Origin: a virus
Lineage: Duplodnaviria > Heunggongvirae > Uroviricota > Caudoviricetes
DNA length: 22,174 nucleotides
Virus record (IMG/VR): IMGVR_UViG_2869924733_000011
Location: 1 to 22,174 of that record
Strand: one strand, 5' to 3'
Shown: positions 18,949 to 20,887 of the stretch, piece by piece
Position numbering within the stretch: the first letter of the stretch is position 1
Layout: the number at the start of each line of letters is the position of its first letter
Notes under the pieces: model-generated
Seen by the model: only the letters and a program-made list of their open reading frames with translations
Told to the model about the DNA's origin: nothing
The model's database searches: none
Program-made: the position numbers and the translations under genes

Positions 18949-19157
18949 TAAACATCATCGGTGGGGTTAAAGGCATCAGGGACTTAATCGATGGTTATGC
19001 TCTGAAGGCTATCAAAGAAAATTACCCCCAATGGGAAGCCGTTGGTATTCAGCTGTTAAGCAAATGCGTTCGTGGAAACGAGCTGACGCAAAGCGGCAAA
19101 GAAATCTGGCAGAGCATGGTTAACGACATGAGCGATACCGTTATGGGGAACATGTAA
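18949..19157 (+). pseudogene. 3' fragment of an unknown phage early gene, truncated by IS911
   Basis: Open frame continuous from inside IS911 (...IGGVKGIRDLIDGYALKAIKENYPQWEAVGIQLL...MGNM*) with no start codon downstream of the IS end. Confidence 0.45.
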
Positions 19158-19382
19158 ATGAAAATCCAATACCAGGACTATGGCGCCGTAGCGAACATCG
19201 TGATCACCAGTTCCCGCCTGACATTGCAAAAGCATAACCGCGTTGTTGATGCGGTACTGTTTAATGTACAGGGGATCTATGAAAACCGCAGCGGCTTTTT
19301 CTGGGTTAAGTCATCGTTGTCAGGAAAAACACTCGACATCCTGCGCGCCTACAAAATCGTACAGCGGGAGGCAAAGCGATGA
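19158..19382 (+). CDS. Hypothetical protein (74 aa)
   Basis: ATG 1 nt after the preceding stop; its stop overlaps the next start in an ATGA arrangement. No family recognised. Confidence 0.5.
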   Translation: MKIQYQDYGAVANIVITSSRLTLQKHNRVVDAVLFNVQGIYENRSGFFWVKSSLSGKTLDILRAYKIVQREAKR

Positions 19383-19474
19383 AGTCATTCCTCCTGTCCA
19401 TGCTGTTTGGTCTGCTGCTGGCGTCCGTCGTTTTCGGTGCGCTGATTGAATATAAATTTTTAATGAATTACTGA
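19379..19474 (+). CDS. Small hydrophobic peptide (31 aa, predicted single transmembrane helix)
   Basis: MKSFLLSMLFGLLLASVVFGALIEYKFLMNY; start overlaps the upstream stop (ATGA). Below the ORF-track size cut-off and found by eye. Confidence 0.35.
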   Translation: MKSFLLSMLFGLLLASVVFGALIEYKFLMNY

Positions 19475-19482
19475 GGTGCGGG

Positions 19483-20112
19483 ATGAGCAAGATCAAAAAC
19501 CCAGTTGTACTTATCCATAAACGAGAAAATAGTGACTCCTACGCCGTTGCAATCACCTGCGGTAGCTTGGACTATCACGACGCCGTTCTGATGGCGACGA
19601 TGGAACCGGATATGAGTGGCGATGATGTAGATACCTGGAGCAAAACCGGTTACTACATGGCTCAAGAAATCGAGCGACTGAAACATGCACTGTCCGCTGC
19701 GGAAAATAATCTGATTGATTCCGAATGCCTCGTCGCTGAATTAAGCAAAGCAAAGGATCATGCATTTGGGCTGGTCGACACATACGACCGGCAACGTCAG
19801 CGTCTCCACGCAGCCGCTGAGAAAGTCATCAAATGGTGCAGACAAGAAGCTGAACACCGTACCGGCGATCCAGAGAAAGCAGAAAACTATGCGTGCGTTA
19901 AAGAACTACGCGTCGCATTAACTTTTTGCAAAAGTTCTGGAGACATCAGGAAGAAAGGTCTGACCATCACCCTGCCCGATATCACATCAAAGGCATTCTG
20001 GAGCGGTACTGGAAAAAGCGCAAAATTCCATCCGGAAACCTATAAACGCTGGGTGAAAGAAGCTATCAAACGGGATTGTGTTATTGCCGGGATCGGCGTG
20101 GAGGTGAAATGA
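19483..20112 (+). CDS. Hypothetical protein (209 aa)
   Basis: GAGGTG Shine-Dalgarno 4 nt upstream; central predicted coiled-coil (EIERLKHALSAAENNLIDSECLVAELSKAK); no family recognised. Confidence 0.6.
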   Translation: MSKIKNPVVLIHKRENSDSYAVAITCGSLDYHDAVLMATMEPDMSGDDVDTWSKTGYYMAQEIERLKHALSAAENNLIDSECLVAELSKAKDHAFGLVDTYDRQRQRLHAAAEKVIKWCRQEAEHRTGDPEKAENYACVKELRVALTFCKSSGDIRKKGLTITLPDITSKAFWSGTGKSAKFHPETYKRWVKEAIKRDCVIAGIGVEVK

Positions 20113-20195
20113 TGAATTGGCCTGAAGCATTCACCGCAGTAGGAGTTGCAATAGCGGTGGCATTTATTCTGTATTCACTTTTCCGCTGGGGATAA
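20109..20195 (+). CDS. Small hydrophobic peptide (28 aa, predicted single transmembrane helix)
   Basis: MMNWPEAFTAVGVAIAVAFILYSLFRWG; ATG overlaps the upstream stop (ATGA); the next gene starts 4 nt after its stop with an AAAGGA Shine-Dalgarno. Confidence 0.35.
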   Translation: MMNWPEAFTAVGVAIAVAFILYSLFRWG

Positions 20196-20199
20196 AGGA

Positions 20200-20442
20200 A
20201 TGTTCGCTCTGATTCAAAGTGGTCAGATATACACCGATAGTGCTGGCTACCCGATAAAAATTATTCGCTGCATAAACAACTCTGTGTTGTACAGAAGAAT
20301 GGATGGGCGAACACAGTCGGTAAAAATAAACGATTTTAATGAACTGTTTGAACGGATCGATCACCAGGAATACCGACAAATTCTGGTAGAAACAGAGCAG
20401 GAAGCTCATTTGAAAAAATTACGAGCCATGAAAAGGAAGTAG
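20200..20442 (+). CDS. Hypothetical protein (80 aa)
   Basis: ORF with Shine-Dalgarno, tightly packed in the operon; no family recognised. Confidence 0.5.
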   Translation: MFALIQSGQIYTDSAGYPIKIIRCINNSVLYRRMDGRTQSVKINDFNELFERIDHQEYRQILVETEQEAHLKKLRAMKRK

Positions 20443-20445
20443 CGA

Positions 20446-20592
20446 ATGAATAAAGCGTTTGAGCTATGGGTACGCCAGCGTTACGGCAATCGTTATGACC
20501 TGACGCGAGATGTTGACGGTTTCTACTGCCGTGAAGTTGTGAAACGAATGTTTGAGGTGTGGTGCCACTGCCGTGGGCTGAAAGTTTTATGA
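20446..20592 (+). CDS. Hypothetical small protein (48 aa, Cys/Trp-containing)
   Basis: MNKAFELWVRQRYGNRYDLTRDVDGFYCREVVKRMFEVWCHCRGLKVL; starts 3 nt after the upstream stop. Found by eye. Confidence 0.4.
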   Translation: MNKAFELWVRQRYGNRYDLTRDVDGFYCREVVKRMFEVWCHCRGLKVL

Positions 20593-20599
20593 GGTTGAC

Positions 20600-20854
20600 A
20601 TGCAGACAATCATCTATCAAATAACACCAAGTAAATGGTGTACAGAAAGCACCCTCATTGCTTCGACAGGGCTAAAACCAGGCACCATTGAGCGAGCCAG
20701 GAAAAAATCATGGCTACAGGGGAAAGAATATCGACATTACGCTGTCGATGGAATTCCGAAGAGCAACAGTGAATGCGTATACAACATAGAGGAAATTATG
20801 CGCTGGATCGAAAATCAGAAACAACCAGGTGTTAAAAATGCAAGTTCTGGTTAA
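20600..20854 (+). CDS. Excisionase-like small DNA-binding protein (putative Xis)
   Basis: 84-aa ORF immediately upstream of the integrase on the same strand; basic segment ERARKKSWLQGKEYRHY loosely resembles the lambda Xis winged-helix region. Position is the main argument. Confidence 0.45.
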   Translation: MQTIIYQITPSKWCTESTLIASTGLKPGTIERARKKSWLQGKEYRHYAVDGIPKSNSECVYNIEEIMRWIENQKQPGVKNASSG

Positions 20855-20887
20855 CCTGTTAATGCTCCTGGACGTCTGGGAGGTTTA

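Follow-up and report, generated by a model that had tools for sequence, protein, structure and literature searches.

We analysed a 22,174-nucleotide (nt) stretch of viral DNA (IMG/VR record IMGVR_UViG_2869924733_000011, positions 1 to 22,174; hereafter the window), and in particular the plus-strand operon at 18949-20887 that leads into its excisionase (xis) and integrase (int) genes. The explanation that we regard as probable is that this operon is the remnant of a lambdoid exo-xis/ea region and that it carries two genuine genes, pepA (31 codons) and pepB (27 or 28 codons), for inner-membrane micro-proteins that act as modulators. What is new is the pair of families, which are conserved, lack a family model and have been missed by routine annotation although they occur in well-studied Shiga toxin (Stx) phages. 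No new mechanism is demonstrated, and the operon is otherwise an ordinary mosaic exo-xis/ea region. A first-pass annotation, made from the sequence alone, had proposed two tiny open reading frames (ORFs) with a single transmembrane (TM) segment that routine annotation overlooks. This proposal was borne out: both ORFs belong to conserved families, and the NCBI Prokaryotic Genome Annotation Pipeline (PGAP) omits pepA and pepB in all records inspected.

Two micro-protein families

The ATG of pepA overlaps the stop codon of the preceding gene, which encodes a 74-residue protein, as ATGA, and a GGGAGG Shine-Dalgarno (SD) sequence lies 7 nt upstream. We gathered 80 viral contigs by means of the 74-residue protein, blind to the peptide. 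An ORF of 30-34 codons starting on the stop codon of the 74-residue gene was present in 45 of these 80 contigs, and pepA was retained even where the 74-residue protein had diverged to 55-70% identity. The family follows the pattern M-K-x-F-L-L-S-M-L-F-G-L-L-L-V/A-A/S-V-V-F-G-A-L-I-E-Y-K-F-L-..., and a second search, which scanned viral contigs for the back-translated FGALIEYKF motif, recovered at least 63 contigs from Enterobacteriaceae with the ATGA overlap to the upstream stop codon in every case (63/63). The gene upstream of pepA belonged to the 74-residue family in about 47 of the 63 contigs and encoded a ParE-like toxin-domain protein (PF24732) in about 15; a common fold for these two upstream families was considered and dropped, as comparison of their profiles with hhalign gave a probability of 0.05%. 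Downstream of pepA, at least five gene families were found.

The FGALIEYKF motif also occurs in species representatives including Citrobacter, Enterobacter, Trabulsiella and Pseudocitrobacter, and the window's own pepA allele is present in 11 of 5426 complete Escherichia coli genomes. Annotations of the peptide, as a hypothetical protein, exist for phage phi467 and for a few nr entries. An exhaustive phmmer search with pepA returned only six representatives: a fusion, a multi-TM protein that is a spurious match, and otherwise short ORFs standing alone. Among the variants collected, one database protein (P0328, an 85-residue partial entry) is an in-frame fusion of the 74-residue protein with pepA, and at one locus (L211, region 6311-6337) a deletion joins the N-terminus of the 74-residue protein to the C-terminal half of pepA (MKIQHQDYGAVAAVVFGALIEYKFLIGF).

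The pepB ORF was first described as encoding 28 residues, which holds when it is read from the ATG at 20109. Translation probably starts at the second ATG, at 20112, to give 27 residues, because this position aligns with the start of the family and has the better SD spacing, with GGAGGT 6 nt ahead. The motif of the family is M-x-W-P-E/D-A ... G-x3-A ... Y-S-x-C/F-R-W-G. An identical pepB is found in phage JLK-2012, where it stands behind a DUF551 gene instead of the gene for the 209-residue protein that precedes it in the window. In contigs anchored on the DUF4222 gene, which follows pepB in the window, a pepB-family ORF lay just upstream of that gene in 46 of 80. These ORFs form two clades, MNWPEAFTAVGVAIAVAFILYSLFRWG and MSWPDAIVTLGMVFAVAFVVYSICRWG, with 67% identity at the DNA level and 52% at the protein level, a ratio of nonsynonymous to synonymous substitution rates (dN/dS) of about 0.17, and 15 of their 28 nucleotide differences at third codon positions. 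Both clades keep W-P-E/D-A, G12, A16, A18-F19, S23 and R-W-G, and positions P5, A7, G12, A16, A18, F19, S23, R26, W27 and G28 are invariant in four aligned variants of the two clades. The pepB of phage 933W ends in R, and wider scans bring variants at several otherwise invariant positions. Judged from the aligned sequences, conservation in pepB is that of a putative G-x3-A helix face together with the two ends of the peptide.

A pattern scan extended the pepB family to at least 120 viral contigs, with 31 protein variants among the matches listed. Among these same matches, the pepB start overlapped the upstream stop codon as ATGA in 96 of 119 and by one base in 11 more. Across the copies seen, the upstream gene usually encoded a DUF551 protein and otherwise a member of the 209-residue family, L0139 of 933W or other proteins, and the DUF4222 gene followed only about one quarter of the copies. 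By tblastn, the family was detected in 92 phage records, including 933W, VT1-Sakai, VT2-Sakai, Min27, BP-4795 and ArgO145. The length of pepB and the position of its stop codon were fixed in loci found without imposing either. The window's pepB allele is present, uncalled, in 484 of 5426 complete E. coli genomes, and in prophage Sp15 of strain Sakai it lies unannotated between ECs_3010 and ECs_3011.

Two pepB loci adjoin loci of the hok/sok type. In 933W (L228, 1501-1950), the pepB ORF follows L0139 and immediately precedes hokW/sokW, and in a record deposited as Actinobacillus phage vB_Apl-pPE4 (L350, 2001-2451) a pepB-family ORF stands directly upstream of a hok/sok-type locus. We also considered a programmed frameshift joining pepB to the protein encoded before it, and rejected this in view of the unrelated upstream genes and the lack of a slippery heptamer.

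Neither pepA nor pepB has an obligate neighbouring gene. The SD sequence of each peptide sits in the last codons of the upstream gene and its start codon on or next to the stop codon of that gene, so that each forms a self-contained module that would be co-translated with any upstream neighbour.

Coding potential

Dozens to hundreds of diverged loci contain the two small ORFs with unchanged boundaries. For pepA, the pooled ratio of nonsynonymous to synonymous polymorphism (pN/pS) was 0.17 in frame, and the two alternative forward frames gave 0.60 and 4.0. Many variants are distinguished solely by synonymous codon changes, at Leu, Gly, Val, Glu or Tyr. For pepB, pN/pS was 0.32 in frame, compared to 1.0 and 1.8 for the alternative forward frames. 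Members of the pepA family are preceded by GGGAGG or AAGGA 7 nt upstream, and those of the pepB family by AGGAGGT or GGAGGA.

Substitutions were also compared between the sense frame and the antisense frame that shares its wobble positions. Their mean BLOSUM62 score was +0.13 (pepA) and +0.34 (pepB) in the sense frame versus -0.06 and -0.50 in the antisense frame, and hydrophobicity was better preserved in the sense frame. Open segments on the antisense strand ranged from 47 to 131 codons without common boundaries, whereas the ATG, SD sequence and stop codon on the sense strand were fixed. No promoter-like site was detected on the minus strand near either peptide, and an Rfam scan gave no match beyond a sub-threshold RsmY. 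We favoured the sense reading because of its fixed boundaries and conservative substitutions, the position of all neighbouring genes on the plus strand, and the lack of an antisense promoter or Rfam element.

None of the Pfam, NCBIfam or PHROG models matched pepA or pepB. A full-text literature search for the peptide sequences found no mention of them, and no such membrane peptides are reported in the exo-xis papers searched. On these comparisons, pepA and pepB look like genuine protein-coding genes that represent conserved families under purifying selection.

Membrane character

The first-pass annotation had described both peptides as hydrophobic and TM-like, and hydropathy analysis agreed. 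The maximum mean over 19 residues on the Kyte-Doolittle scale was 2.54 for pepA and 2.28 for pepB, compared to values below 0.5 for the larger soluble neighbours, and the summed Hessa scale gave -2.4 and -0.9, respectively. Each peptide contains one hydrophobic helix long enough to span a membrane, with short charged flanks (K2 and E24/K26 in pepA; E6 and R26 in pepB). On evolutionary evidence, pepA and pepB are probably translated and inserted into the membrane.

Genomic context

The plus strand of 18949-20887 is wholly filled by eight packed reading frames with strong ribosome-binding sites (Table 1). In gene order from the first frame to int, the junctions are 0 nt, an ATGA overlap, 8 nt, a second ATGA overlap, 4 nt, 3 nt, 7 nt and 33 nt, and on inspection a SD-like purine run stands ahead of every start. 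The ORF map, the ATGA overlaps and the SD sequences uphold the earlier description of a translationally coupled small-gene operon on one strand. Spacing had been given as overlapping or 1-4 nt, which fits most junctions and fails for two spacers of 7-8 nt. The first ORF had likewise been taken as an ordinary member of the operon; its reading frame is present, but homology begins at 18949 and the frame is a 5'-truncated remnant.

Table 1. Features of the window (positions in nt; strand given where assigned).
Feature	Position	Strand	Assignment or remark
S-adenosylmethionine (SAM)-methyltransferase gene	1205-1873		
ipaH-type NEL E3 ligase gene	2189-3832		
Tail-fibre genes and J C-terminal fragment	4012-10521	-	
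End of IS3-family (IS911-like) element: orfA and terminal inverted repeat	18508..18948	-	ORF 18508-18912; matching E. coli records annotate IS911-family transposase
Remnant without start codon, last ~69 codons of a 112-residue gene	18949..19157	+	phrog_37628
74-residue protein gene	19158..19382	+	phrog_1001
pepA, 31 residues	19379..19474	+	Single-pass membrane micro-protein (predicted)
209-residue mosaic protein gene	19483..20112	+	phrog_492
pepB, 28 residues (27 from second ATG, 20112)	20109..20195	+	Single-pass membrane micro-protein (predicted)
80-residue DUF4222 protein gene	20200..20442	+	Pfam PF13973
48-residue protein gene	20446..20592	+	phrog_3871
xis, 84 residues, excisionase (DUF1233, XisR-like)	20600..20854	+	Pfam PF06806, E 7e-31; PGAP name xisR in relatives
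int, tyrosine integrase, last gene of the operon	20888..22174	+	Pfam Arm-DNA-bind_2 and Phage_integrase

This stretch is the distal, int-proximal exo-xis/ea accessory part, mosaic in composition, of a lambdoid early-left (pL-type) operon. Its genes lie directly upstream of xis-int on the same strand, and the same gene order ending in xis-int is found in matching E. coli and phage loci. In E. coli LH50-c (L001), about 20 tightly packed genes on one strand run unbroken from a LexA-family repressor gene to int, an array that has the architecture of the lambda early-left operon; ATGA overlaps are frequent in this relative, as across operons of this type. The order of the 48-residue gene, xis and int, together with the LH50-c relative, confirmed the earlier placement in an int-proximal accessory region. 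In the intact relatives, a single long leftward early transcript would extend from the immunity region through xis and int, with its cistrons translated as a closely coupled chain, and transcription from pL would occur early after infection or induction. The LH50-c early-left operon also encodes ParE-like toxin-domain, SPFH (HflK/C-like) and ORF6N proteins (L001, 5400-7081); the ParE-like gene is of the kind that precedes pepA in about 15 viral contigs.

The window itself is a remnant of a Shigella lambdoid prophage, and exact matches to its proteins carry the names S. boydii or S. dysenteriae. Its closest full-length relatives, at 94.6% identity, are prophages adjoining mlrA in three chicken-associated E. 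coli isolates, and the attachment site of the E. coli relatives adjoins mlrA. The middle of the prophage, the pL promoter included, has been swapped for insertion sequences (IS), and the stretch from J to the early operon is entirely IS DNA. This block covers 10.3-18.9 kb of the window (about 8.5 kb) and contains elements of the IS4, IS110, IS3, IS91 and IS30 families, arranged back to back in the order IS4, IS110, IS4, IS3-type, IS91, IS30 fragment and IS911 fragment. Phage homology begins precisely at 18949, directly past the end of the IS3-family (IS911-like) element, which cuts the operon off from any phage early promoter. No promoter-like site was found on the plus strand between 18400 and 22174. 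Because of this and of the IS DNA upstream, the operon is, in this genome, a decapitated and promoter-less remnant.

The larger ORFs beside the peptides had been described as matching no nameable family, and sequence searches modified that view in part: the 80-residue protein belongs to DUF4222 and the 209-residue protein contains an Ea22-like segment, while the remnant, the 74-residue protein and the 48-residue protein fall into PHROG families annotated as of unknown function (phrog_37628, phrog_1001 and phrog_3871). Profile families were thus obtained for the 80-, 74-, 48- and 209-residue proteins, and structure prediction was less informative. The AlphaFold2 models of the 74-residue protein (predicted local distance difference test score, pLDDT, 45) and of the 209-residue protein (pLDDT 59, helical at residues 53-151) are too poor for fold searches. 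Sequence searches of the PDB with the 74-, 80- and 209-residue proteins gave chance-level matches only, and matches of the 48-residue protein to TALE repeats were rejected as repeat artefacts with no individually significant stretch.

The remnant matches phrog_37628 (E 1e-37) over profile positions 45-113 of 116, and an intact 112-residue homologue is encoded in E. coli LH50-c (L001, 7871-8209). The 74-residue protein (phrog_1001, E 1.7e-32) is spread over Enterobacteriaceae prophages, and all of its 303 homologues are named hypothetical. Of the homologues seen for the 48-residue protein (phrog_3871, E 2.4e-35), most keep C28 and C40-H41-C42, a possible zinc knuckle. Its gene normally stands directly before xis, and in some loci (L157, L160-L163) it is ATGA-coupled straight to the 74-residue gene.

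The 209-residue protein (phrog_492, E 1.4e-17) belongs to a family in which conserved N- and C-terminal domains flank a variable coiled-coil middle; the C-terminal domain ends in GIGVEVK, and the codons for this ending hold the SD sequence of pepB. By BLASTP, residues 31-110 are 30% identical over 90 residues (E 1e-8) to gp07 of phage JLK-2012, an ead/Ea22-like protein, and the common segment includes AAENNLIDSEC-VAEL. Some database entries of the 209-residue family bear the name Ead/Ea22-like. The protein contains the central coiled-coil (tetramerisation) segment of the Ead/Ea22-like family and lacks the N- and C-terminal domains of Ea22, its similarity being limited to residues 31-110 with no sequence match in Pfam, NCBIfam or PDB. 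On this domain comparison it is best described as a putative Ea22-type mosaic, not an orthologue of lambda Ea22. PGAP calls only the last 159 bp of the 209-residue gene, as an "incomplete, missing N-terminus" pseudogene (L001, 9006-9164; L003, 6798-6956; L352, 1046-1204), although the 209-codon ORF is complete in L001 and L003. This pseudogene call seems to be an error that recurs in annotations of the family.

The 80-residue protein matches PF13973 (DUF4222) at E 1.4e-15, with 57 bits against a cut-off of 27. The characterised member of this family is RgdR/ECs1581, a 99-residue prophage regulator that activates LEE1 and the type III secretion system (T3SS) and represses motility in enterohaemorrhagic E. 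coli (PMC3378721, PMC10877973), and whose RGD motif (residues 20-22) is important for T3SS activation (PMC3378721). RgdR matches PF13973 at E 2.1e-23, and the pairwise match between it and the 80-residue protein is marginal (E 0.07). BLASTP pairs G21-D22 of RgdR with G8-Q9 of the 80-residue protein, and extending the register by one residue would place S7 opposite R20, aligning RGD with SGQ; in this extended alignment the 80-residue protein lacks the RGD motif. The two proteins are alike in being small, basic and prophage-encoded with the same Pfam domain, and differ in length (80 versus 99 residues), in SGQ for RGD and in residing in a lambdoid versus a P4-like prophage.

Relation to described systems

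In lambda and in Stx phages, the exo-xis region lies between the recombination/early genes and xis, is transcribed early, is dispensable, shifts the balance between lysis and lysogeny and is largely uncharacterised (PMC8614690, PMC3824215, PMC10789677). Genes of this region, known from the Wegrzyn and Donaldson laboratories, are orf60a, orf63, orf61, orf73, ea22, ea8.5 and orf55. The window's operon resembles the region in sharing the strand of int, in standing immediately before xis-int where the early-left transcript ends, in consisting of many small, non-essential and closely packed ORFs that are mostly uncharacterised, and in the Ea22 coiled-coil segment of its 209-residue protein. In contrast to the described exo-xis proteins, which are soluble, the window's peptides are hydrophobic. 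Ribosome profiling of lambda identified extra tiny translated ORFs of 7 and 31 residues in the exo-xis region (PMC8614690). A 31-residue lambda exo-xis ORF, possibly the profiled one, was considered as a relative of pepA and is unrelated in sequence. Lambda NC_001416 (L164) also contains, on the complementary strand at 31008..30925, a strongly hydrophobic ORF of 27 codons, MTTTECIFLAAGFIFCVLMLADMGLVQ, whose ATG overlaps the orf63 stop codon as ATGA and which lies out of frame within orf61; neither pepA nor pepB is a homologue of it.

Small membrane proteins of enterobacteria, of at most 50 residues and with one TM helix, are routinely left unannotated, and in known cases bind a larger membrane protein (PMC12648545). 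Like MgtS, AcrZ, KdpF, MgrB, PmrR and SgrT, the peptides described here have no more than 50 residues and one predicted TM helix, and were missed by annotation; unlike them, pepA and pepB are cistrons of a phage operon instead of chromosomal genes with their own regulated promoters, and the sequences are not similar. Type I toxins (Hok/Gef, TisB, Ldr, Ibs, ShoB, DinQ, ZorO) share size, a single hydrophobic helix and a frequent prophage location with pepA and pepB, which differ from them in having no family match and no antisense RNA gene and in being cistrons of a multigene operon versus stand-alone loci.

Evaluation of the proposed role and alternatives

We propose that the peptides would be made from the early-left transcript, early after induction or infection, and would insert as single-pass inner-membrane proteins, with pepA oriented N-in and pepB N-out according to the positive-inside rule. 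They would then act on a membrane protein of the host or the phage by contacts between helices, for which the G-x3-A and small-x3-small faces and the juxtamembrane segments EYKF (pepA) and WPEA and RWG (pepB) are candidate surfaces. In this way they may tune host physiology or the outcome of lysis versus lysogeny, like other exo-xis genes, without killing the cell. We prefer a modulator to a toxin because the same transcript must deliver Xis and Int in a viable cell, and because type I signatures, defence-model matches and an own promoter are lacking.

Several observations weigh against this proposal. The operon has no identifiable promoter in this genome, and its genes are probably silent relics at this Shigella locus. 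Neither the sequences nor the coordinates of the peptides appear in the supplements of a ribosome profiling (Ribo-seq) study of intergenic small genes in E. coli O157 Sakai, in which the cultures were uninduced. Nearly all variants also leave open the antisense frame that shares wobble positions, which has pN/pS values of 0.41 (pepA) and 0.36 (pepB); since these are similar to the sense values, pN/pS by itself is no proof of strand. It was rejected in that role, and the conservativeness of substitutions and the conservation of boundaries were used in its place. The window ORFs gave no Pfam match for orf60a (DUF1317), orf63 (DUF1382), orf61 or orf73 (TraR/DksA-like), and none of these genes is annotated in L001. 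Because these lambda core genes are absent, the name exo-xis is applied here by position only, plus the Ea22 segment; phage JLK-2012, which has the pepB-int part in common with the window, carries an orf60a/orf63/orf61/orf73/ea22 block. Finally, it is we who infer the step from membrane peptide to modulator as opposed to toxin.

The first-pass annotation had suggested toxin, superinfection-exclusion or anti-defence functions. These suggestions found no support, as there was no match in PADLOC (0 across all eight ORFs), no match to a type I toxin family and no antisense promoter. The peptides are unlikely to be membrane-damaging toxins of the type I or holin-like kind, which would serve host shut-off, abortive infection or post-segregational killing by depolarising or permeabilising the inner membrane. 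In size, single TM helix and small-residue faces the peptides do recall Hok, TisB, Ibs, DinQ and ZorO (see the review PMC12648545), type I toxins are often borne by prophages, pepB lies just upstream of a hok-family locus in both 933W and vB_Apl-pPE4, and it gives a weak match (E 0.07) to the glycine-zipper TM model DUF883_C. However, neither peptide matches the Pfam toxin families (Hok_Gef, Ldr, TisB, Ibs and others; E <= 0.1), and no antisense promoter or small RNA signal accompanies them. They are coupled inside an operon that expresses xis and int, which need a living cell, and lack the own promoter and long structured 5' untranslated region that are typical of type I toxins; they are moderately hydrophobic and do not show the pattern of polar or charged residues that lines the pore in TisB.

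A function in superinfection exclusion or against other phages or host defences, for example by blocking DNA entry at an inner-membrane channel, appears somewhat more doubtful. Factors for the entry of lambdoid DNA do reside in the inner membrane, and the int-proximal accessory site and mosaic presence and absence of the peptides amount to a "moron-like" distribution. Against this, besides the negative PADLOC result, the genes belong to a repressed early operon without its own promoter, from which no expression is expected in a stable lysogen, when exclusion is needed, and the peptides are smaller than, and unrelated to, the known Sie, Imm and Cor proteins.

It is improbable that each peptide is the membrane anchor or subunit of the protein encoded upstream (the 74-residue protein for pepA; the 209-residue or DUF551 protein for pepB), with stoichiometry set by translational coupling. 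The nearly universal ATGA overlap and the in-frame fusion in P0328 would suit such partners, but pepA follows two unrelated families and is missing behind 35 of the 80 74-residue genes, pepB follows at least four unrelated upstream genes, ATGA overlaps are common in this operon type, and the single fusion may be a sequencing error.

Least probable of all, and by our estimate very improbable, is that the small ORFs are not functional proteins and that their DNA is kept as a recombination linker, an RNA element, a ribosome-passing spacer or an antisense gene: the open antisense frame with its similar pN/pS, the coincidence of module boundaries with the peptide edges and the lack of PGAP calls point that way, but amino-acid motifs outlast 33% DNA divergence that is mostly at third positions (in pepB, the 15 of 28 given above), substitutions are conservative and preserve hydrophobicity in the sense frame only, start, SD sequence and stop are fixed against antisense segments without conserved boundaries, and neither an Rfam match nor an antisense promoter was found.

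Implications

The exo-xis region is one of the few parts of lambdoid phages that are still poorly understood, and in Stx phages it affects how the prophage is induced and, through this, how Shiga toxin is produced. The recognition of pepA and pepB as recurrent, conserved membrane micro-protein genes provides concrete and cheap targets in phages that have been studied closely, 933W and Sakai Sp15 for example. There is also an impact on annotation, as about 9% of complete E. coli genomes carry the window's pepB allele uncalled, and the intact 209-residue gene is wrongly labelled by PGAP as a pseudogene fragment.

Tentatively, we suggest a more specific role, which is possible and clearly speculative: pepA and pepB could be undescribed inner-membrane micro-proteins of lambdoid phages, 933W and VT1/VT2-Sakai among them, that are produced from the early-left operon within minutes of induction or infection and that each bind a specific host complex (for example FtsH/HflKC, which sets CII stability, the DNA-entry channel or the divisome) and thereby bias the choice between lysis and lysogeny, and hence toxin release, or exclude competitors. 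If true, this would add a membrane arm to a picture of exo-xis function that has been purely cytoplasmic.

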